Position numbers and translations under genes: made by a program. This document shows positions 2,116 to 33,438 of a stretch of 34,646 nt of DNA, piece by piece. The stretch lies in the IMG/VR virus record IMGVR_UViG_3300042393_000897, positions 1 to 34,646 of that record, one strand, 5' to 3'. Below the pieces are notes generated by a model. The model saw nothing but the letters and a program-made list of their open reading frames with translations, ran no database searches and was not told where the DNA came from. Origin of the DNA: a virus (taxonomy: Duplodnaviria > Caudoviricetes). How positions within the stretch are numbered: the first letter of the stretch is position 1; each line of letters opens with the position of its first letter.

Positions 2116-2221
2116 CTCAAATACCCTCTCTGAACCCACTTTCTGGCCCCGCTGAGGGGCCGCCATTCAATTTTCTCGCTCCACCCCTGATCACCCTACA
2201 GGGTGGGCCGGCACAGACCCC

Positions 2222-2473
2222 TTAAACGCGGCTGTAGACGGCATCGAACTTTTTGACACTGCGACGGGTGATCACGGCAACCGGGCGAACGTAGACCACG
2301 GGAGGTGTCCGGCGAGTCATCGGCACCGTGCAGCCCATCATCGCGTCCAGATCGGTAGCTGCAGCCAGCGCTTTGGCGTGCCGGTGGGTTATCTCGCCGT
2401 CGGGCAATGCCCAGCCGCCGGTGGCGTGAACCGGGATTGTTGCGTTCCCAAAGCGAATGTCTTGCTGCTCCAT
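2222..2473 (-). CDS. Hypothetical phage protein, first gene of the leftward operon
   Basis: 83 aa with GAGGG RBS; TTGACA on the minus strand at 2562-2567 upstream. Confidence 0.7.
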   Translation of the reverse strand: MEQQDIRFGNATIPVHATGGWALPDGEITHRHAKALAAATDLDAMMGCTVPMTRRTPPVVYVRPVAVITRRSVKKFDAVYSRV

Positions 2474-2562
2474 CGGTTTTCCCTCGTTGCGGTAGGTGGT
2501 GCGCCGCTATCCTGTTGACGAAGCGGTTCGTGGTGCGCAGTTTGGCTCCACGTTACTGTGTT

Positions 2563-2579
2563 GTCAACTGTCAGTTGAA
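2563..2579. promoter_or_regulatory. 17-bp palindromic operator-like site overlapping a leftward -35
   Basis: GTCAAC-TGTCA-GTTGAA, the exact reverse complement of the site at 7072-7088. Confidence 0.75.
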
Positions 2580-2598
2580 TAGTAATCGAGAGGTTGAA

Positions 2599-2949
2599 AT
2601 GAAAATTCTTGCTGGAGCACTGGCAATCCTGCTGCTGGCCACCGGATTCATGGGTTGGCGGCTCAAGGTTGCTTGGGAGGATGTGGCCACAGCCCGCGGG
2701 GATGCCCAGCAGGCGCAACAGGTCGCGGGGGAGCAGCGCCAGCAGGCCGAACTGCTCAACCAACGCCTGGTGACCCTGGACAGCACCCTGAAGCTCGTTG
2801 CCGCCGGCACACAGGCCAACAGCGAGCAACTGGATCAAACCGTCGACGCAATCGACGCAATCGGAAAAACCGAAGGAGTTCCCCATGACCAAAGTGTTCT
2901 GTGCCTTGACGTTCGCGTGCCTGTTCAGCTCGATGAGCGGCTGCGCTGA
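2599..2949 (+). CDS. Inner-membrane spanin (Rz-like)
   Basis: N-terminal TM helix (MKILAGALAILLLATGFMGWRLK), Q/A-rich coiled coil, C-terminal Cys; overlaps a lipoprotein gene. Confidence 0.8.
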   Translation: MKILAGALAILLLATGFMGWRLKVAWEDVATARGDAQQAQQVAGEQRQQAELLNQRLVTLDSTLKLVAAGTQANSEQLDQTVDAIDAIGKTEGVPHDQSVLCLDVRVPVQLDERLR

Positions 2950-3196
2950 TCAGACCGTGATCACCAAGACCGAGTACCGCCAAGTCTACGTCCCGGAGAG
3001 TCTGCTGCTGGACTGCCACGTTCCGCAGTGGCAACCCGGAGGGTCGTACCGTGATCTCGCCGTGCTGGCGGTGAAGCGCAAGACCGCTCTGGATGACTGC
3101 AACCTTCGGATGGGTGCCGCCCGGCGCTATCAGGCGGAAATTCGGGCTTCCGAGGCAAACCTAATGACTAATCCTTCCGGTGAGAGAAGTCATTAG
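2885..3196 (+). CDS. Outer-membrane lipoprotein spanin (Rz1-like)
   Basis: Signal peptide with lipobox-like MSGC; P..LLLDC..P and ALDDCN motifs; overlaps the 3' end of the i-spanin. Confidence 0.8.
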   Translation: MTKVFCALTFACLFSSMSGCADQTVITKTEYRQVYVPESLLLDCHVPQWQPGGSYRDLAVLAVKRKTALDDCNLRMGAARRYQAEIRASEANLMTNPSGERSH

Positions 3197-3476
3197 GAAA
3201 GTCATTAGGAAAAATTGTCTTATAAATCATACCCTTACCCTTAAACCTAATTACTAATTACTACTAATGACTAATAATGAGTCTTATACATGAGCGCGCA
3301 TTTTTGTGATGACGCACCCGGTGTGATGACGACGTGATGACACATCACACATTACGCACACATATAGTAGAGTTGTTTCATATTATGTGATTAGTAATTA
3401 GGTTCTGCTCTAAGTCCATGATTTATAAGGAGAATTTTACTAATGTGAACCTAATGACTTCCAACAACGTATTAGG
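3158..3476. other. Probable replication origin: AT-rich symmetric iteron region
   Basis: Repeated CTAAT(G/T)AC units in both orientations. CTTATAAATCAT-N13-AACCTAATTACTAAT (3219-3258) is mirrored at 3390-3429. Central GTGATGAC repeats. Lies directly downstream of the primase-helicase. Confidence 0.7.
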
Positions 3477-9712: not shown

Positions 9713-9741
9713 AAAGGGCGCTTCGGTGCCCTTTTTCTTTT
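9713..9741 (+). terminator. Intrinsic terminator after SSB
   Basis: AAAGGGCGC-TTCG-GTGCCCTTT followed by TTCTTTT. Confidence 0.85.
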
Positions 9742-9796: not shown

Positions 9797-10909
9797 ATGA
9801 AACCCAAGAAGAAGGTCGTCCTCGACGTAGAATGTTACAAGAATTACTTCATGGTCGGCGTCAAGAACATCGAGACCGGCAAGGTGCTGAACTTCGAGCT
9901 GTATGATGGCTGCTCGATGGACCTGCAGACCCTGGATAAAGTCATCCGCCAGTGCCAGGTGATCACCTTCAACGGCAACAGCTACGACATGCCGATGGTC
10001 ACGTTGGCCTTGTCTGGCGCCAGCACCATAATGCTGAAGAAGGTCAGCGACCAGATCATCACGCGCAACCTGAAGCCCTGGAACTTCGAGCGGGCCTATG
10101 GCGTGCGCATCCCCAAGATTGATCACGTCGACCTGATCGAGGTGGCCCCAGGTCAGGCCAGCCTGAAAATCTACGCCGGCCGGGTGCACGCGCTGAAGAT
10201 GCAGGACCTGCCGATCGAGCCGGATGCGCTGATCACCGATGACGTTCGCCCCATCATGGTCTCCTACAACAACATCGGCGACCTGCCGGCCACCATCGCG
10301 CTGCACGCCGCCCTGATCCCGCAGATCGAGCTGCGCGAACGGATGTCGAAGGAATACGGGATTGACCTGCGCTCGAAGTCGGACGCCCAGATCGCCGAGA
10401 CCGTGATCAAGGCCCAGCTCGAGAACCTGACCGGCATAAAGCCCGAGCGGCCAGAAGTGCCCGAGGGCACCACCTTCAAATACAAGGTGCCGGCGTTCCT
10501 GAGCTACACCACCGACACCATGAAAGAGGTGCTGGAGATGGTCCGCAACGCCGACTTCGTGGTGACCGACACCGGCGGGATCAAGATGCCAGATGAGCTG
10601 GCCAACGCCAACGTGGTGATCGGCAACTCGGTCTTCCGCATGGGCATCGGTGGGCTGCACTCCAGCGAAAGCTCCGTCTTCCACATTGCCGACGACGACA
10701 CCCTGCTGCTCGACCGCGACGTGGCCAGCTACTACCCGGCCATCATCCTGGGTCAGGGCCTGTACCCGAGCCACCTCGGCCCCGACTTCCTGACCGTGTA
10801 TCGGAAGATTGTTCAACAGCGCCTCGCTGCGAAGGCCCGCGCAGATGTGCTTCGCGCAGAGATTTCCAAAATAAAAGCCCGCATCAAGGAGCTTGAAAAT
10901 GGCCAATAA
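9797..10909 (+). CDS. Family B DNA polymerase, N-terminal subunit (3'-5' exonuclease + motif A)
   Basis: Exo I LDVECY, Exo II TFNGNSYD, motif A DVASYYP; ends in the fingers helix RLAAK plus a coiled-coil extension. Confidence 0.9.
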   Translation: MKPKKKVVLDVECYKNYFMVGVKNIETGKVLNFELYDGCSMDLQTLDKVIRQCQVITFNGNSYDMPMVTLALSGASTIMLKKVSDQIITRNLKPWNFERAYGVRIPKIDHVDLIEVAPGQASLKIYAGRVHALKMQDLPIEPDALITDDVRPIMVSYNNIGDLPATIALHAALIPQIELRERMSKEYGIDLRSKSDAQIAETVIKAQLENLTGIKPERPEVPEGTTFKYKVPAFLSYTTDTMKEVLEMVRNADFVVTDTGGIKMPDELANANVVIGNSVFRMGIGGLHSSESSVFHIADDDTLLLDRDVASYYPAIILGQGLYPSHLGPDFLTVYRKIVQQRLAAKARADVLRAEISKIKARIKELENGQ

Positions 10910-11570
10910 AGAATATCACCCACGAGGCGTGCCAATTGGGGACTTCGCTGCTAGGCAGCACCCTTTGTATGCCACATGGGCGGCAATGCGTGATCGTTGT
11001 TTGAACCAAAACTCCCCAAACTACGAGAACTACGGTGGTCGCGGCATCGCCATCTGCGATCGTTGGGATCATTTTCGGTTTTTTGTTGTGGACATGGGTC
11101 TCAAGCCGGAACGATCGCTCACCATTGAACGTATCAAAAACGACCTTGGTTATGGCCCTGACAATTGCAGGTGGGATACCCGCTCCAATCAGTGTGTTAA
11201 CCGCCGAAAATTCCGAAACAACACGAGCGGTGAAACGGGCATCGTGGCGGTTCGTGGCGGTCGATTCTCGGCGCAATTCGACTATATGCACGAACGCTTT
11301 CAGGTTGGTCGCTTTTCCACGTTAGAAGATGCCACCTCTGCTCGTTGCGCCTTCGTGGAACTCTTCTTCACTGACCGGGAGCTGGCGATTGCGTCTTTAC
11401 CGAAGCAACCCGCTCGCTTCGATTCCACAACCGGGGTTCGCGGCATCACTCCGCACGCCGATGGTGGGTTTATTGTTCGTGTTACTGAGGATGGTGTTCG
11501 TCGCTATCTTGGATATTTCAAAGAATTTTCGGAGGCAGTAGATGAGCGAGCTAAATTCCTTACACGCTGA
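10899..11570 (+). mobile_element. Free-standing HNH homing endonuclease with two AP2-like DNA-binding repeats, inserted within the polymerase gene
   Basis: YATWAAMRDRC...YGGRGI..CDRW...IERIKNDLGYGPDNCRW...NRR; AP2-like repeats (NTSGETGI...VGRFSTLEDA; STTGVRGI...LGYFKEFSEA); overlaps both polymerase halves. Confidence 0.9.
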
Positions 11571-12537
11571 GTTGGCGAAGCTAGAGCTTGAACTTATTGG
11601 TGTTGCAGCTGAGCGCGACGGAAAAAAAGTGGCGATCAATGGTAGCTTCGGAAAGCTGGGCTCCAAGTGGTCAACCCTGTACTCCCCGGACCTGATGATC
11701 CAGGTGACGATCACCGGCCAGCTGGCGCTGCTGATGTTCATCGAGGCGCTGGAGGAAGCCGGCATTCCGGTGGTCAGCGCCAACACAGACGGTGTGGTGT
11801 TCAAGTGCCCAGCCTCCCGCCGGCCCGACGTGGACGCGATCGTGGCCACTTGGGAGAAGGCGACGGGCTTCGAGACTGAGGAAACCCGGTACAAGGCGCT
11901 CTACAGCCGTGACGTGAACAACTACATCGCCATCAAACCCGACGGCAAGATCAAGCTGAAGGGGGCCTATGCGCAGGCCGGGCTGCAGAAGAACCCGACC
12001 AACGAGATCGCGGTCGAGGCGGCGGTCAAGTACCTTTCCCAAGGTGTTCCGGTAGAAGAGACTGTCGGCAATTGTGGCGACCTGACCAAGTTCGTCACGG
12101 TGCGTCAGGTGCAGGGCGGCGCCATTCAGGGCTACAGCGACTTTAACTCGAAGGCCAAGGTCGCCGAGAAGCTGGCGTGCCTGACCCGCAACGGCTGGTC
12201 GGAGTGGCCGCAGAAGGGTACGTGGACCAACGACGACTTCACGCTGTCGATGAGCCGTGAGGACGCCTACAAGCACTGCGGGAAAGTGCGCGACCCCGTG
12301 TATCTGGGCAAGGCGATCCGCTGGTACTACGGCATCGGCGAGACCCGCGACATCCGCTACAAGATTAACAACAACGCTGTTCCTCGCTCCCGCGGCGCCG
12401 TCCCGGTGATGAACCTACCGGATGAGCTGCCCAGCGACCTGAACTTCGACTGGTATGTCCGGGAAGCCTTCTCCATCCTGCGCGATGTCGGGCACCCGAA
12501 GTTCCAGTACCACGACCAGTTTGAAGACCTAATTTAA
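11542..12537 (+). CDS. Family B DNA polymerase, C-terminal subunit (motifs B, C, thumb)
   Basis: Motif B KVAINGSFGK, TITGQ, motif C SANTDG, RDVNNY, KLKG; own GGAGG RBS at 11531-11535. Confidence 0.9.
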   Translation: MSELNSLHAELAKLELELIGVAAERDGKKVAINGSFGKLGSKWSTLYSPDLMIQVTITGQLALLMFIEALEEAGIPVVSANTDGVVFKCPASRRPDVDAIVATWEKATGFETEETRYKALYSRDVNNYIAIKPDGKIKLKGAYAQAGLQKNPTNEIAVEAAVKYLSQGVPVEETVGNCGDLTKFVTVRQVQGGAIQGYSDFNSKAKVAEKLACLTRNGWSEWPQKGTWTNDDFTLSMSREDAYKHCGKVRDPVYLGKAIRWYYGIGETRDIRYKINNNAVPRSRGAVPVMNLPDELPSDLNFDWYVREAFSILRDVGHPKFQYHDQFEDLI

Positions 12538-12553: not shown

Positions 12554-13504
12554 GTGGCTAAAGAGAAAATGTTCGTCAGCTTCAGCGGTGGCCGAACTTC
12601 TGCCTATATGTCTTGGTGGCTGAAAGCAAATATGAGTGATAAATACGAATTTGTATTTCTATTTGCCAATACTGGCCAAGAACATGAAGAAACTTTAAAG
12701 TTCGTGCAGCGTTGTGACGAGGCGTTCGCTCTAAACTTGGTTTGGGTTGAAGCTAAAGTCCATCACGGCGAACGTAGAGGGACCACTCACAAAATTGTCG
12801 ACTTTAATAGCGCCTGTCGTAAGGGTGCACCTTTTGAGGAAATGATCAAGAAATACGGCATACCGAACACCTCGTACCCTCACTGCACACGCGAACTCAA
12901 GTTAAACCCTATGTATTCTTTCATCAATGAGGTTTGGCCTGAGAGAGACTACTTGGTTGCTGTTGGTATTCGATCGGATGAGCAGAAGCGCCGTCGAAAG
13001 GATGCTGAAAAGGCAAAAATTGTTTACCCGCTGATGGATTGGAACCCTGTCGACAAGCAGGATGTGAACAGTTGGTGGGAAGAGCAATCTTTCAATCTTC
13101 AACTTGAAGAGTATGAAGGCAACTGCGTTTGGTGCTGGAAGAAAACTGACCGGAAGCACTTTCTCAATTTGTCCAGAAACGTGACTAGATACGCATTTCC
13201 TGACCGGATGGAGCAACTATATGGTCAGTCTGGATCGGGAGATCAATCTCGCGTCTTCTTTCGTCAAAATCGCTCAACTCGCAACTTGATCGGGCAATTG
13301 CAGCTTATGAATCCTGATACGAGGATGGGTTCTCGTGACGATGAGGACGCAGGTTGCTCGGAAAGCTGTGAAGCCTTTGGTGCAGTTGAGTGCGGCGGAG
13401 TTGAGTGCGGCGGTTGCGATCTCATAGGGACACTGCGCTCTAGCGGGGAAGGCGACTCCCACATTGTTGACTACGACGCCATGGCCCTCGACCCACTCAT
13501 TTGA
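12554..13504 (+). CDS. PAPS-reductase-family (PP-loop) protein
   Basis: VSFSGGRTS PP-loop, ANTGQEH, CTRELK, GIRSDE..R, GNCVWCWKK; more AT-rich than its neighbours. Confidence 0.85.
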   Translation: MAKEKMFVSFSGGRTSAYMSWWLKANMSDKYEFVFLFANTGQEHEETLKFVQRCDEAFALNLVWVEAKVHHGERRGTTHKIVDFNSACRKGAPFEEMIKKYGIPNTSYPHCTRELKLNPMYSFINEVWPERDYLVAVGIRSDEQKRRRKDAEKAKIVYPLMDWNPVDKQDVNSWWEEQSFNLQLEEYEGNCVWCWKKTDRKHFLNLSRNVTRYAFPDRMEQLYGQSGSGDQSRVFFRQNRSTRNLIGQLQLMNPDTRMGSRDDEDAGCSESCEAFGAVECGGVECGGCDLIGTLRSSGEGDSHIVDYDAMALDPLI

Positions 13505-22802: not shown

Positions 22803-23501
22803 GTGACCAAACCAATCAGCAAGCCCCGCACCCGAGCCAAACCACCGGCCCGCAAAGCGCCAGCACCGAAGCCCAAGGCTGCACCGCTCGAAGAAGACGA
22901 CCTGATCGGAGGCAACCCCGAAGACGATGAGGTGATTACCGACGACTTGGCCGAGGTGTACGGCGGGGTGAGTGCGCATTGGCTGGCCCAGATGTTCGGC
23001 GCCGACAAAAACACGATCAAAAAGAAGCTGGCATCCTCGGGCATCGAGATTGTGGGTCGGCGAAACGGCGGCCCCCTCTACCGCCTGAAGGACGCTGCCG
23101 CCTACCTGGTCACGCCGAAGGTCGATCTGGTCAGCTACATCAAGAGTCTGCGGCCGAACGATCTGCCGCCGATGTTGAACGACGCCTACTGGGGCTCGAT
23201 GCTGAAGCGCCAGAGGTGGGAAGAGAACGCCGGTGATCTGTGGCGCACCGCCGATGTGCTCGAGGTGCTGGGCGACCTGAATCTGGCCTTCCGCACCACC
23301 GTGAACCTGTGGGTCGAAGAGGTTGACCGGATCAACAGCCTGACCGCCGAGCAGCGCGTCACGATCAGCCAGAACGCCGACAAGCTGCTCGATCAGGTCT
23401 ACGAGATGCTGGTCGAACTGCCGGCCAAACGCAAAACGTCGAACACCTCGGTCGAGGATGGGACGATGCCCGATGGTGACGAGACGGGGGCTGGTGAGTG
23501 A
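22803..23501 (+). CDS. Terminase small subunit (Chi-like, DUF1441-type)
   Basis: HTH (SAHWLAQMFGADKNTIKKKL) and E..AGDLWRT; directly upstream of TerL; GTG start after GGAGG. Confidence 0.85.
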   Translation: MTKPISKPRTRAKPPARKAPAPKPKAAPLEEDDLIGGNPEDDEVITDDLAEVYGGVSAHWLAQMFGADKNTIKKKLASSGIEIVGRRNGGPLYRLKDAAAYLVTPKVDLVSYIKSLRPNDLPPMLNDAYWGSMLKRQRWEENAGDLWRTADVLEVLGDLNLAFRTTVNLWVEEVDRINSLTAEQRVTISQNADKLLDQVYEMLVELPAKRKTSNTSVEDGTMPDGDETGAGE

Positions 23502-25636
23502 GGTTCCTGACCCTTGAGCAGTTGATCGCAGCCACGGCCAGTGGTGTCCGCCCACCCGAACGTCTGACGGTTGCCGAGGCAGCCGAGAAGTACCGCTATC
23601 TGAATAACCCCGGAAGCTACGTCGGCTATTGGGACAACTCCATCGCCCCTTACCTCGTCGAGCCCATGGAGACGCTGAGTAGCACTGACTACCTCGGCAT
23701 GATCTTCGCCGGCCCCGCAAGGTGCGGCAAATCGGACATGTTTTTCAACTGGCTGACGCACACGGCCATCTGTGATCCAGCCGACATGATGCACGTCCTG
23801 ATGACCATGAACGTGGCACGGGATTGGAGCCAGAAGGACCTACGGCGGGCATTCCGTCACTCCAAGGAACTGGGTAAGACGGTGGCCCCCGGCCGCCACA
23901 ACCAGAGCACCCACGACATTCGCTTCCTGAGCGGCATGCACCTGCTGGTCAAGTGGCCAACGATCACCGAGCTTTCGGGTAAGACGGTTGGGCGCAACTG
24001 GATCAGCGACTACGACCGCATCCCCGAGTCGATCGACGGTGAGGGTAACGCCTACGACTTGACGGCCAAGCGGGCCACCACCTTCCGGCGCAACGGCATG
24101 ACCGTGGCCGAGTCCAGCCCAGGCTTCGAGATCGAGGACCCGAAGTGGGTTGCCCGGACGAAGCACGAAGCGCCACCCACTCGCGGCATCTTGGCGCTCT
24201 ACAACCGTGGCGACCGCCGGCGCTGGTACTGGCGCTGCCCGCATTGCGTGACCCCGTTCGAGCCCGACTTCAACCTGCTGCAATACCCGGACAGCGCGGA
24301 TCACGTTGAGGCGGCCGAGGCTGCTGTGATGGCCTGCCCACACTGCGGCGGCATCATCTGGCACGACGGCGAGCACGGTGTACCCGGCAAGAATGAGCTG
24401 AACCAGATCGACTTGGGTAACGCCAACTGGGTGCGCGACGGTCAGATTTGGACGCCTCGCCAAGCACTCGAAGCCAACAACCGGGGCGTCATCGAAGGCA
24501 CCCCCTACCGTTCCGACCAGGCCAGCTTCTGGCTGAAGGGGCCGGCGGCCTCGTTCACCAACTGGCGCGACTTGGTGCTGAAGTACCTCAAGGCTGACGA
24601 AGAATATGAACGCACAGGTAGTCAAGAGTCGCTGAAGACCACCGTCAACACCGACCAAGGTCTGCCGTTCAAGCCTCGTGGGATGGACGAGGGTCGCAAC
24701 TGGGAGGACGTGAAGTCCTTGGCCAGCGATCTCGGCATCCGCGTGGTGCCGCTGGGCGTGCGTTTCCTGCTGGCCCTGATCGACGTGCAGGCGGGCCGCT
24801 TCGAGGTCCAGATCGTCGGCGTTGGGGTCGGTGGCGACATGACGGTCGTCGACCGCTTCGCAATCAAGAAGTCTGCCCGGCTGGATGAAGACGGTGAGCG
24901 CGAGCGCGTGAAGCCCGCCACCTATCTCGAGGATTGGCACCTGCTGATCGAACATGTGATCCTGAAGTCCTATCCGCTGGGCGACGGCTCCGGCCGGCAC
25001 ATGCCGATCAGGATGGCGGGCTGCGACTCAGGTGGTGCTGCAGACAAGAAGAACGACAGCTCGACGACCAAGGTAGCCTACGAGTTCTGGCGTGCGCTGC
25101 GCGACTCGGACGGCACCAAATTCCCAACCGGGCTACACAACCGCTTCCGCCTGCTGAAGGGTTCGAGCAACAAGTCGGCTCCGCGGGTGCAGCTAAACTA
25201 CCCCGACAGCGAACGTCGTGACCGGACGGCTGGCGCCCGCGGTGAAATCCCGGTGCTGATGATCAACACCACGGCCCTGAAGGATCAGCTCAACAGCCTT
25301 TTGGATCGCAGAACCCCAGGACACGGCAAGATCAACTTCCCCAACTGGCTGCCCGATGAGTTCTGGCAGGAGATGGTGGCAGAGGTCAGGACGAGCGATG
25401 GCTGGGACAAGATCAGCCCAAGGAACGAGGCTTGGGACTTGCTGGTCTACGCGATCGCCATCTCGCTGCACCGACCGATCAAGATCGAGCACATGGACTG
25501 GGAAGATTGCCCGGGTTGGGCGGCCGAGTGGGACGATAATGATCTTGTATTCAACCCCACGTTGAAAAGTAATCCCAACGCTGGACCCAAGGTGAAAGAG
25601 ATGACATTGGAAGAATTGGCTCAGGCTTTAACCTGA
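23498..25636 (+). CDS. Terminase large subunit, lambda gpA family
   Basis: PPERLTVAE, PARCGKS Walker A, ESSP, CPHC x2, IDVQ, CDSGG, RNEAWDLLVY. Confidence 0.95.
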   Translation: MRFLTLEQLIAATASGVRPPERLTVAEAAEKYRYLNNPGSYVGYWDNSIAPYLVEPMETLSSTDYLGMIFAGPARCGKSDMFFNWLTHTAICDPADMMHVLMTMNVARDWSQKDLRRAFRHSKELGKTVAPGRHNQSTHDIRFLSGMHLLVKWPTITELSGKTVGRNWISDYDRIPESIDGEGNAYDLTAKRATTFRRNGMTVAESSPGFEIEDPKWVARTKHEAPPTRGILALYNRGDRRRWYWRCPHCVTPFEPDFNLLQYPDSADHVEAAEAAVMACPHCGGIIWHDGEHGVPGKNELNQIDLGNANWVRDGQIWTPRQALEANNRGVIEGTPYRSDQASFWLKGPAASFTNWRDLVLKYLKADEEYERTGSQESLKTTVNTDQGLPFKPRGMDEGRNWEDVKSLASDLGIRVVPLGVRFLLALIDVQAGRFEVQIVGVGVGGDMTVVDRFAIKKSARLDEDGERERVKPATYLEDWHLLIEHVILKSYPLGDGSGRHMPIRMAGCDSGGAADKKNDSSTTKVAYEFWRALRDSDGTKFPTGLHNRFRLLKGSSNKSAPRVQLNYPDSERRDRTAGARGEIPVLMINTTALKDQLNSLLDRRTPGHGKINFPNWLPDEFWQEMVAEVRTSDGWDKISPRNEAWDLLVYAIAISLHRPIKIEHMDWEDCPGWAAEWDDNDLVFNPTLKSNPNAGPKVKEMTLEELAQALT

Positions 25637-31130: not shown

Positions 31131-31396
31131 CCGCAATCCTCACCAACCAGACCACCTCGGGCAGTTCTGCCAACCAGACGGCAACCGGCGCAGTGACAAT
31201 CACTGCTGGCGGCATTTTCAACGGTGGCAGTGTGGTCATCGAGACCAGCCCTGACGGTTTACCATGGACTCCTGTGGCTTGGTTCGATCAACCCGGTGGG
31301 CAAATCTTGGACTTCACCTCGGGGACTATCTATCGGGCCACCGTAGTGGTGCGTAACGGCGACTCGATCAGCGTGTCTGCTGTCCCGAGGGTTTGA
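31127..31396 (+). CDS. Small beta-rich putative virion protein
   Basis: 89 aa, G.F.GGSVVIE.SPDG..W motif; coupled to both neighbours. Confidence 0.7.
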   Translation: MTAILTNQTTSGSSANQTATGAVTITAGGIFNGGSVVIETSPDGLPWTPVAWFDQPGGQILDFTSGTIYRATVVVRNGDSISVSAVPRV

Positions 31397-31398
31397 TT

Positions 31399-33438
31399 AT
31401 GATGGGTCGCCAGCTCTGCCGTCCGCTAGCTAAGCCCCTGTCGCGTGCAATCACTCAGGTTTCTGCTGGAGGAGGGTCAAGCGCGCCGGTATATCCACCG
31501 AAGGCCTTCTATTTTAATGACTTCAACGCCATCACCAACGCAACAAAACTGCGCGATTTGCCGGGGTGGGCGGCGTATAACTCGGTTGGCTCAGTGGCGG
31601 CAGCACGCGACCTATGGCAAGTGCAGACGAACGCTATACAGCGAATCAGTGGCACTGACTCTGCGGTTCAGCCGGGCACGTTCGTCGTTGGTCGAGATAC
31701 TGGGTCGGATAACCACACGGTCAAATGCAAGCTGGTTGCGCTTCCGGGGTCTGGTGGCCTGCTAAACATTGTCGTCGGGGCGACGGCCGAAAATAACTCG
31801 ATCTATTTACGGTGCGCAAATGCTGCCGGAGTGATGCAAAGCTTTATCATCGCTCGTAATGTCGGCGGCACGCTCACAACGCTGCTGACCCAAGCCCCAA
31901 GTACAAGCCAGCTCGGGCGCGCCCTGCTTGTTGGCGATGAGCTTGAGTTGCAAATAGTGGACCGGGCCGTGCATCTGTTCGTAAACGGGTTGCGGATAAC
32001 GCCCTCCGCCGGAGTTAACATTGACGCGGGGACAGCTTTCGTTAAGGGTAGTATTTGCGGCTTTGGCACCGGGCAAGGCGCTACTTATGATGACGTGTAC
32101 GTCGCCCAGCTGGCGGGGTCAGTGGCTATCGTTGATACGCCTATTTTCTGGCCGGGGGAACTTCTGAGTGGCCGCGAGGTGCCGCTTACTGGGTCTTACA
32201 CTGGTGATGTGCAGGCGCTTGACTATCAAGTGGTCAACGCGGCGACGGGAGCGGTAGTTAAAGACTGGTCCCGGTGCGCGGCCCCGGTAATCGCATCAGG
32301 TTCTTGGCTCGCTTCTGTCTTTGTCCCTATGTGCGACAACGCCGTAAACCCGAAAGTTAGGGTTAAGGTTCGGGCCGCAAACGACACTGACGTTAAAGCC
32401 CCATCAACGATTACAGCGGTTGGGTTGGGCGCAACAAGCTACGGGCAGAGCAACTCTCACTACCGAGGTATCCCCGGATCTACGGTTTACCCAGTCAACG
32501 GCAATACCTACACATGGTCGCTGTCCGCCGAAAGCAAGTGGAAAGGGGGTGCCGCCACCACGCTTGAACGCTCACAGTTGTGGGCGCTACAGTTGTCGGA
32601 GGCGCTTGGAGTACCTGTCGGCATTTGCATAGCGGGCGTCAGTTCTCGCACAATTTCCAGCCTTGTCACTACTGAGTGGGCCGGAACAAAAGCGGTCTTC
32701 GACACGGCGGGTATTACTGGCTTTAGCTACTCGACCCTGTGGACGCAAGGAGAGGCGGAATCCGCGCAAGCGGTTGCATTTAACGTCGCAGCCTACCGTG
32801 CTAATTTTGACACCTTGCTCGGGCTGCTCGAAGAGGTGAGCATCTCGCCAACACCAAGCGTGGGCATTTGCGTTATCGGCAAAAACTCGGGCACTCACGT
32901 TTCAGGGTCAGTATTTGGCGCTGCAAACTGGTCTGCCGCCCGCCAGTGCCTATTTGAACTGACGGACAAGCCGAATGTTCATGTCGCAACCGGTCTATTT
33001 GACGCGACAATGGCCGACACCCTGCATTATGTATCCGACGCCTATGTCGAGAACGGCCGCCGCGCTGGCTTGTCTATGCGTAAGGCACTTGGTTATGGCG
33101 GCTACGATGGCCGTGGCCCGCTAATTACAGGCGCGTCGCGTGTTGGTGCAGTCGTCACGCTGCCGGTTGACCTTAACGGCGCTGCGTCGATTGCTGGCAC
33201 TGGCTTGACCCACTACGAAGTGAGTGCGGACAACTTCACCACCATCTTGCCGGCAGTTTCGACAGCGGTGGTTGGCAGCAATATCGTTATCACACTGGCC
33301 GCCGATCCGGGCGCAGCAGTTAAGGTGCGCAGCTTCTACGGCATGAACTTCACAAGCCCGACCTACGCAGTGGGCACCTACGCAGACGGTACAACCATTC
33401 CGACCGAGCCAATTTATTCTGCTCTTAGTGCGCTGTAA
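31399..33438 (+). CDS. Putative virion-associated SGNH/SASA carbohydrate O-acetylesterase
   Basis: GQSN (block I), WTQGEAE (block III), DTLH (DxxH); beta-rich N-terminal domains. Confidence 0.75.
   Translation: MMGRQLCRPLAKPLSRAITQVSAGGGSSAPVYPPKAFYFNDFNAITNATKLRDLPGWAAYNSVGSVAAARDLWQVQTNAIQRISGTDSAVQPGTFVVGRDTGSDNHTVKCKLVALPGSGGLLNIVVGATAENNSIYLRCANAAGVMQSFIIARNVGGTLTTLLTQAPSTSQLGRALLVGDELELQIVDRAVHLFVNGLRITPSAGVNIDAGTAFVKGSICGFGTGQGATYDDVYVAQLAGSVAIVDTPIFWPGELLSGREVPLTGSYTGDVQALDYQVVNAATGAVVKDWSRCAAPVIASGSWLASVFVPMCDNAVNPKVRVKVRAANDTDVKAPSTITAVGLGATSYGQSNSHYRGIPGSTVYPVNGNTYTWSLSAESKWKGGAATTLERSQLWALQLSEALGVPVGICIAGVSSRTISSLVTTEWAGTKAVFDTAGITGFSYSTLWTQGEAESAQAVAFNVAAYRANFDTLLGLLEEVSISPTPSVGICVIGKNSGTHVSGSVFGAANWSAARQCLFELTDKPNVHVATGLFDATMADTLHYVSDAYVENGRRAGLSMRKALGYGGYDGRGPLITGASRVGAVVTLPVDLNGAASIAGTGLTHYEVSADNFTTILPAVSTAVVGSNIVITLAADPGAAVKVRSFYGMNFTSPTYAVGTYADGTTIPTEPIYSALSAL

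Follow-up and report, generated by a model that had tools for sequence, protein, structure and literature searches.

A nuclease gene flanked by mirrored heptad tails splits a phage family-B DNA polymerase at the finger tip

Introduction

How might a phage keep its DNA polymerase when a nuclease gene divides the reading frame at the tip of the fingers, and what would rejoin the halves? The question is raised by the virus record IMGVR_UViG_3300042393_000897 (Caudoviricetes), whose whole 34,646-nucleotide stretch we refer to as the window. Here a family-B DNA polymerase (PolB) is encoded as two open reading frames (ORFs), Pol-N and Pol-C, with a free-standing HNH nuclease gene between them. We describe the nuclease gene and the two polymerase tails that flank it as one cassette, present evidence that this cassette is a mobile unit found at the same site in many related genes, and weigh how the two proteins may reassemble into one enzyme.

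Results

Architecture of the split polymerase

Pol-N, the HNH gene and Pol-C occupy three different reading frames and overlap by 11 nt and 29 nt (Table 1), and there are therefore zero non-coding bases between the halves. In a PHROGs search the two polymerase ORFs matched consecutive parts of a single family, phrog_1252 (profile positions 51-402 and 398-654). The catalytic motifs are all intact across the pair, which together carries the exonuclease motifs, motifs A, B and C and the PolB fold of a family-B polymerase. This layout confirms the original prediction, made from the letters of the window alone, that an overlapping HNH gene splits the polymerase at the finger, that Pol-C has its own GGAGG ribosome-binding site (RBS) inside the HNH gene, and that no non-coding room is left for an intron core. 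Pol-N continues for 24 residues past RLAAK and Pol-C begins 28 residues before the motif-B Lys, whereas intact genes have 11 residues between these points. At its end, the right arm substitutes its own codons for those that begin the motif-B helix in the parental gene.

Misassembly does not account for the split. Contigs from one additional sequencing run (X5) cover the Pol-N/HNH junction and the start of Pol-C, and those from another (X6) cover both junctions, with 0 differences; run X2 contains the whole stretch but may be the source of the window. A joint from a cassette-free allele was not found in the 4 sequencing runs searched (of 18 listed). The gene order of the window matches that of Achromobacter phage AchV4 and Serratia phage JS26, in which the polymerase is one ORF. 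The closest intact relatives found, L160 and L336 (Stutzerimonas stutzeri prophage), are 65-68% identical (67-68% for Pol-N and 65-67% for Pol-C) and are both short-fingered. They have in common with Pol-C a thumb-region insertion that is missing in most homologues (Table 1).

Table 1. Features of the window and of related loci (window coordinates unless a locus is named)
Feature	Position	Strand	Remarks
Pol-N	9797-10909	+	370 aa; 3'-5' exonuclease motifs, palm motif A, first finger helix, C-terminal tail
Exonuclease motifs of Pol-N	9824 (DVECY); 9968 (FNGNSYD)	+	
Palm motif A of Pol-N	10718	+	Asp308
RLAAK of Pol-N	10820-10834	+	first finger helix
Cassette left arm	10835-10909	+	Pol-N C-terminal tail, 24 aa; also encodes the HNH RBS and HNH start
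RBS of HNH gene (AAGGAG)	10886-10891	+	within Lys-Glu codons of the N tail, 7 nt 5' of the HNH ATG
HNH gene	10899-11570	+	free-standing; 223 aa from ATG; two AP2-like repeats; overlaps Pol-N and Pol-C
RBS of Pol-C (GGAGG)	11531-11535	+	in the last helix of the HNH gene, 6 nt 5' of the Pol-C ATG
Cassette right arm	11542-11625	+	Pol-C N-terminal tail, 28 aa; first 10 codons overprinted on the HNH end
Pol-C	11542-12537	+	331 aa; tail, motif B, motif C, thumb
Motif B of Pol-C (KVAINGSFGK)	11626-11655	+	motif-B Lys at 11626
Motif C of Pol-C (ANTDG)	11779-11793	+	
Thumb-region insertion	~12125-12295		~55 aa; Pol-C residues ~195-250
Terminator-like hairpin and T run	9713-9734		between the gene for single-stranded DNA-binding protein (SSB) and the polymerase; an AT-rich spacer comes next, with no match to the sigma-70 consensus
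PAPS-reductase-family gene	12554-13504		AT-rich (39-49% GC); between the polymerase and a small gene preceding the helicase
Terminase large subunit ORF	23498-25636		712 aa; internal parts match PHROGs separately; may contain an insertion
ORF 3' of the head genes	31393-33438		681 aa; no PHROG match
Full HNH gene with AP2-like repeats in the gap	window, L028, L166, L298, L318, L341, L541, L576, L577		8 besides the window; L005/L028/L596 are one contig, counted here
HNH remnant in the gap	L240, L007		nuclease core lost, both ends kept
GIY-YIG gene in the gap	L083, L093, L094		
Hairpins over the nuclease RBS	L093:5055-5110; L341:1150-1205; L083:3140-3190		z -3.1; z -2.4; z -1.6 (weak)
Further free-standing HNH genes	L083:4967-5680; L063:6112-6600; L079:7688-8335		3' of the polymerase, in split and intact loci
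GIY-YIG genes in motif-A group I introns	L483, L487, L489, L490, L493, L494, L496, L501	 	about 2150-3290

The tails are foreign to the polymerase and mirror each other

We compared GC content at third codon positions (GC3) across the locus. Tail codons that do not overlap the HNH ORF stand at 16/35, well below the polymerase body at 532/611 (Fisher p 3e-8); the HNH gene, at 110/216, does not differ from the tails (p 0.59). The tails thus belong to the insert and carry a nuclease-like codon usage foreign to the polymerase, as had been proposed from their AT-richness. Tail GC3 is likewise lower in 6/8 other split loci, L093 and L318 being uninformative because they are AT-rich throughout. Codon usage and the insertion boundaries described below both assign the tails to the element, as in-frame extensions of the Pol-N C terminus and the Pol-C N terminus.

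The N tail of the window, 24 residues long and not 25 as first counted, is basic (net +2) with the expected heptad core of L/I/I/I/L at positions +6, +10, +13, +17 and +20. The C tail is the predicted acidic counterpart (net -3), with an L/L/L/L/L core at -25, -22, -18, -15 and -11 from the motif-B Lys. To these we added tails from related proteins: 88/124 proteins from two further searches end after motif A without a motif B, and with 9 loci they gave 97 N-tail rows, of which 10 were dropped (7 frameshift-like, misparsed or intact, 1 shifted and 2 duplicates); removal of exact duplicates left 83. Across the 83 N tails +6, +10, +13 and +17 are 95-99% hydrophobic and +20 is 61% hydrophobic, while across 58 C tails the values are 90-98% for -11, -15, -18 and -22 and 56% for -25. 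The C-tail core scores 0.88, compared with at most 0.37 in 1000 shuffles.

The N and C patterns mirror each other at one offset (r 0.96, and at most 0.25 at 8 other offsets), which corresponds to the a-d' layering of an antiparallel two-helix coil with both tails ending at the same level. Net charge is positive in 58/83 N tails and negative in 37/58 C tails, and HNH-type and GIY-YIG-type tails have register and length in common. The residue preceding the motif-B Lys is Leu in 180/197 short intact sequences and in 10/58 split ones, a difference that is partly one of lineage because one intact clade also lacks Leu there.

Structure prediction suggests a helical hairpin at the finger tip

A natural one-chain form with both tails, L177, was modelled by AlphaFold from a 92-row alignment with a mean predicted local distance difference test score (pLDDT) of 93.5. 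In this model, which matches solved PolB structures (E 4e-10), two helices (60-95 and 101-135) form a hairpin in which each tail seamlessly continues its finger helix, with a 5-residue turn between them. For the two-chain window enzyme, a complex prediction of Pol-N 270-370 with Pol-C 1-150 scored 0.59, compared with 0.00 for the best control, with at least 98% contact agreement between runs and a partner pLDDT of at least 79. The mark applied was reached by 116/157 solved and 2/215 mismatched pairs, but of those that reached it with 0.60 or less the solved pairs number only 18 and the two mismatches are both among them; the window's score lends weak support and may reflect likeness to solved PolB. 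A single-sequence AlphaFold model of the fused protein P0122 had a pLDDT of 37.8 and was not used. From the mirrored heptads, the hairpin model of L177 and the complex prediction, we infer that the tails pair as an antiparallel coiled coil.

Split and intact alleles point to a mobile unit

Alignment to uninterrupted homologues located the cassette bounds in three pairs of near-identical split and intact DNA (L028/L030, L083/L079 and L341/L038), in each of which tail-nuclease-tail replaces ~5-7 codons of the short finger loop; L028 and L030 match at 53-60 of 60 nt per bin. Because split alleles adjoin near-identical short-finger intact genes with only these few loop codons replaced, tail-nuclease-tail behaves as a mobile unit. 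The mobile coil-nuclease-coil cassette of the original prediction is borne out by these alleles, by the foreign tail codons and by the register kept in 83 N and 58 C tails.

Phylogeny agrees with repeated insertion. In a FastTree tree of 327 Pol-C regions (60 split; regions excluding tail and motif B), the split state needs 38 changes and forms 41 pure clades, counts made without a shuffle comparison. Distances between split and short-finger alleles are 0.02-0.13 substitutions per site. A single split clade was rejected in a subset of 34 rows, picked once the tree was known (approximately unbiased test, p-AU 3e-94), and in this subset the window was sister to L160 + L336 (Shimodaira-Hasegawa-like approximate likelihood ratio test, SH-aLRT, 97).

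Sequence divergence is also raised beside the insert. Between L083, which carries a GIY-YIG gene, and intact L079, the whole stretch between motif A and the insert is divergent (28/60 mismatches vs a background of 65/780). Divergence at motif B is raised in L341 (8/33, p 0.001) and L083 (7/33, p 0.02) and borderline in L028 (p 0.054).

The same site is occupied in many loci

Apart from the window, 14 contigs have a split at this site, two of these contigs being near-identical, and mirrored heptad tails are present at every readable end. Wherever DNA is available for a split locus, the gap contains a nuclease gene or what is left of one (Table 1), and no nuclease-free split allele was found among these loci. 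A first screen of 399 sequences yielded 322 with motif B, comprising 297 intact (265 short-fingered and 32 longer), 11 split including the window and 14 unassigned, among which L007 proved split by inspection and the rest intact or cut off. Of 159 further loci in a second screen, motif B was present in 147; 136 of these are intact and 4 are split, 3 of them new, while 7 stayed unassigned. Stand-alone Pol-C proteins numbered 52, the window's included, in the best 120 of 886 short homologues, and 47/52 start at 28 (40) or 27 (7) residues before the motif-B Lys. These searches give no split frequency because they were built to enrich short forms. No split allele was recognised in cultured phages among the matches listed (25-45 per search).

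In 12/13 split loci an ATG or GTG lies 27-28 codons 5' of the motif-B Lys, with a Shine-Dalgarno (SD)-like word in 9/13, and the frame offset between the halves varies among loci. In sum, a free-standing nuclease splits an essential ORF that is continuous in relatives, and one site is repeatedly occupied, with nuclease decay, nuclease swap and re-fusion.

Two nuclease families share the cassette

The window HNH ORF matches an HNH endonuclease PHROG (E 1e-42) and is 43-49% identical to the HNH genes that occupy this site in five further split loci. It had been called an HNH-AP2 gene that overlaps both halves; the overlap stands, but Pfam matched neither HNH nor AP2 in the window protein, and only the relative L576 gives a sub-cut-off AP2 match (E 6e-4). 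The search for general HNH relatives brought no enrichment of split loci: of the 141 loci that it gave, none carries this polymerase at a distance of 2.5 kb or less. No RBS-hiding hairpin was found 5' of the window HNH or Pol-C start (z 0.3 and 0.8), and there was no promoter excess. An RBS-covering hairpin is described for mobE, as in L093, L341 and L083 (Table 1), unlike the window, where the nuclease start overlaps the Pol-N stop. Further free-standing HNH genes lie 3' of the polymerase in some loci.

Relatives of the cassette GIY-YIG nuclease lie in group I introns that interrupt PolB motif A, with an Rfam Intron_gpI match in L489 (E 4.5e-9). Because of this location, sequence relationships suggest that the cassette recruited a GIY-YIG nuclease already aimed at this polymerase gene. 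The motif-A-intron nuclease is in two pieces in L495 and L502, and related genes occur in Flavobacterium phages Fpv1, Fpv2 and others.

No splicing signature was found

Rfam returned nothing relevant in the window or the split loci. At the gathering level it missed all 8 likely motif-A introns, and we therefore relied on a motif test with controls: group I S and R words were found in 8/8 motif-A intron control loci, and an intact S core in 0/9 fingertip inserts. The window does not combine a P7 core with non-coding room round the ORF, as a group I intron would. Split inteins have an N part of ~100 aa starting with Cys or Ser and a C part ending in His-Asn; the tails, at 24 and 28 aa, have no such ends, and Pfam gave no intein match, in keeping with the predicted lack of intein termini. 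No intron, intein or bypass signature was found in the sequence.

Long fingers in intact genes

The original prediction took uninterrupted homologues that already carry both long helices as evidence against it. Some such homologues exist and the objection partly applies; the best-resolved cases look like re-fusions and not ancestors. P0122 is a natural in-frame fusion of L093-type tails, although as a single record it could be an assembly artefact. L054 has a 7-residue word in common with the L341 C tail, and its nearest relative, L053, is short-fingered. On sequence grounds the best-resolved long fingers read best as re-fusions after nuclease loss. L513-L572 is an intact PolB clade with fingers of 23-27 residues; the Gly-Gly at their end also closes many split Pol-C tails, and the clade may stem from an old re-fusion that has eroded. 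The 27-residue-finger clade of about 46 loci fits re-fusion imperfectly, as do several other extensions, and these may be eroded scars or independent growth.

Genomic setting

The record is a 34.6-kb virus sequence, 58% complete, with modules for exonuclease, SSB, polymerase, helicase, terminase, portal and capsid. Next to the polymerase the window has a PAPS-reductase-family gene, perhaps a DNA-modification moron, where the records of AchV4 and JS26 have none. Other features of the window are listed in Table 1.

Discussion

We consider it likely that the two proteins bind through native palm/finger surfaces and are clamped by the element's three-heptad antiparallel coil, while the nuclease spreads the unit by cutting intact alleles. 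A cycle would begin with tail A-nuclease-tail B replacing ~5-7 short-loop codons, as seen in its presence or absence in otherwise near-identical genes. Pol-N would then end at its own stop and Pol-C start from the RBS inside the nuclease gene, with neither RNA nor protein splicing. Residues +6/+10/+13/+17/+20 would pack on -11/-15/-18/-22/-25 and stand in for the covalent loop, allowing the RxxAK helix and the motif-B helix to move together, with the native palm interface probably providing much of the binding. The nuclease would cut intact alleles near the site, HNH probably near motif B and GIY-YIG probably at motif A, and repair would copy the cassette together with the altered target codons. 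Finally the nuclease may be swapped, may decay with the split kept, or may be deleted to leave a fused long-finger gene; each of these states is seen in extant loci, and their order is our proposal.

The weakest step by our analysis is the presumed need for the coil in rebuilding the enzyme, and several observations weigh against the scheme. A Pfu PolB split near the finger tip without tails is reported to be fully active and wild-type-like (PMC3061061), and the tails of Aeromonas phage Aeh1 NrdA to be essential for activity and not for fragment binding (PMC3045599); because of these two cases, the polymerase tails need not be the main glue. The e/g charge pairing of true partners is not better than shuffled (score 0 vs -1.5 +/- 5.0, 12 loci), and in L083 the N tail is neutral and the C tail basic. 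The N half of the mirror pattern is post hoc because the positions chosen beforehand were one residue off (only 0.05 hydrophobic) and the core was then read from the data, and 4 dropped N proteins, which look like frameshifted intact genes, end without a heptad tail. The ERIDN word of the window HNH has Lys where most relatives have Asp, so this nuclease may be inactive. Longer fingers occur in 32/297 intact loci of the first screen and 75/136 of the second (mostly one clade), and only 7/15 distinct fingers of 70+ keep 5/6 core positions. Rfam's silence on the window counts for little because elsewhere it caught only 1/3 likely introns, and the ratio of nonsynonymous to synonymous substitutions (dN/dS), 0.08-0.21 on both halves in 4/4 pairs, includes the intact branch.

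In a rival account the native palm/finger interface holds the two-subunit enzyme and the tails are optional stabilisers or mainly translation signals for the nuclease and Pol-C. The tail-less Pfu split and the binding of NrdA fragments without tails speak for it, as do the SD or start signals encoded in both tails and the missing charge covariation between partners. We nevertheless think it unlikely, given that the mirrored hydrophobic core is 95-99% kept in tails of little other identity, outside the overlapped codons too, and that tails persist after nuclease decay (L240, L007) and with another nuclease family. It is far less probable that the insert is removed or skipped at the RNA level, as an overprinted group I intron or by ribosomal bypass, to give one long-finger chain. 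Related GIY-YIG genes are indeed intron-borne in motif A, fused long-finger forms are viable-looking ORFs and Rfam is insensitive here; set against this are the zero non-coding room in the window, the S core missing from 9/9 fingertip inserts and found in 8/8 intron controls, the placement of Pol-C start codons and SD-like words, and frame offsets that differ among loci.

A long-finger ancestor with both helices, in which a nuclease merely inserted at the tip and the split was inherited vertically, we regard as comparably improbable. The long and medium fingers of intact homologues, among them the ~46-locus clade whose 27-aa fingers end like split alleles, favour such an ancestor; as an account of the present-day spread it is largely refuted by the short distances from split to short-finger alleles, the rejection of a single split clade (with its rows picked after seeing the tree) and tail codons foreign to the host gene, and a first origin of the tails from such an ancestor could still be true. 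Least credible is a broken gene, with dead halves or a misassembled split. The record is incomplete and a second polymerase elsewhere is possible, but the catalytic motifs are all intact, the junctions recur in other sequencing runs, split proteins number in the dozens independently and dN/dS does not exceed 0.21.

The favoured scheme, a non-splicing cassette whose tails clamp the two halves, follows a principle that is already published for Aeh1 mobE/nrdA, T4 mobA/topoisomerase and fingertip-split gp43; new here are the target family, the zipper geometry and the breadth. The original prediction rightly cited split gp43 and Aeh1 as precedents but understated how far they go: the NrdA tails have been shown to be essential (PMC3045599) and a full life cycle is described for MobA (bioRxiv 2022.08.31.505936). 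The MobA element lies in the large subunit of phage topoisomerase II (T4 genes 39/60; bioRxiv 10.1101/2022.08.31.505936; PMC11461880), and the preprint reports repeated insertion, replaced target sequence, decay, nuclease swap and secondary fusion. Like MobA, the polymerase element is a C-terminal extension-HNH-N-terminal extension unit that splits an essential ORF at a fixed site, has near-identical parental alleles and brings its own replacement for a target stretch. Its nuclease likewise decays or is swapped (for MobA, to GIY-YIG or VSR), and secondary fusion keeps the tails. Unlike MobA, it targets the PolB finger tip, has tails of ~24 and 28 aa instead of ~44, lacks a bypass cassette and carries tails that are mirrored heptads continuing two host helices; the word 'coiled' does not appear in the main text of the MobA preprint.

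In Aeh1, nrdA-a/mobE/nrdA-b has AT-rich, oppositely charged, element-derived tails, and further cases were predicted (Crona et al. 2011, PMC3045599). There, as here, an HNH gene splits an essential gene without intron or intein, the nuclease overlaps the downstream gene, and of the two AT-rich tails that of the N half is basic and that of the C half acidic. The Aeh1 tails are reported to be essential for a higher-order dimer, whereas the polymerase tails are predicted to pair within one enzyme. Nucleases of two families occur in the polymerase element, which is widespread. Bicistronic gp43 (43A/43B) of T4-like phages 25, 31, 44RR, 65 and 133, with the GIY-YIG gene seg43(25) in phage 25 (PMC2988022, PMC3061061, PMC2677866), is likewise a family-B polymerase split in the finger tip, with a free-standing nuclease between the cistrons in phage 25, and its halves are reported to co-purify and to be active. 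It belongs to a PolB family other than phrog_1252, which is found in Achromobacter phage AchV4 and in Nipuna-, Nonag- and Septima3-like siphophages. The fingers of T4 are long to begin with and the position of the split varies, whereas the element described here puts its tails in place of a short loop, always in the same register. Fractured genes with split inteins (Dassa et al. 2009, PMC2677866) also consist of two halves with appended element parts flanking an exchangeable free-standing endonuclease; unlike them, the polymerase split has no intein and covalent re-ligation is not expected. We found no paper on a split of this polymerase family, and subscription papers and supplements (of the MobA preprint and the Petrov papers) may hold related cases.

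A bolder reading, which we hold tentatively and think somewhat less likely to be right than wrong, is that the tail pair is itself the persistent element: a transferable, non-splicing two-helix splint, the counterpart of introns and inteins, that hires an HNH-AP2 or an intron-derived GIY-YIG nuclease. It would have invaded PolB dozens of times and would be required to couple the finger helices in nucleotide selection, and the long fingers of intact genes in this family would be relics that it left behind.

The assembly of nuclease-split enzymes from their halves is described as an open structure-function question (PMC2988022), and it is testable here on a monomeric enzyme with a simple predicted zipper, for which near-identical intact, split, decayed and re-fused alleles are natural controls. 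The tails provide a natural library of ~80 short, predicted antiparallel helix pairs, and the element is a possible origin for part of the variation in PolB finger length. Our results suggest that uncultured phages commonly have an essential replication gene that is split without being spliced, and two short 'polymerase fragments' flanking an HNH gene should therefore not be annotated as a pseudogene.

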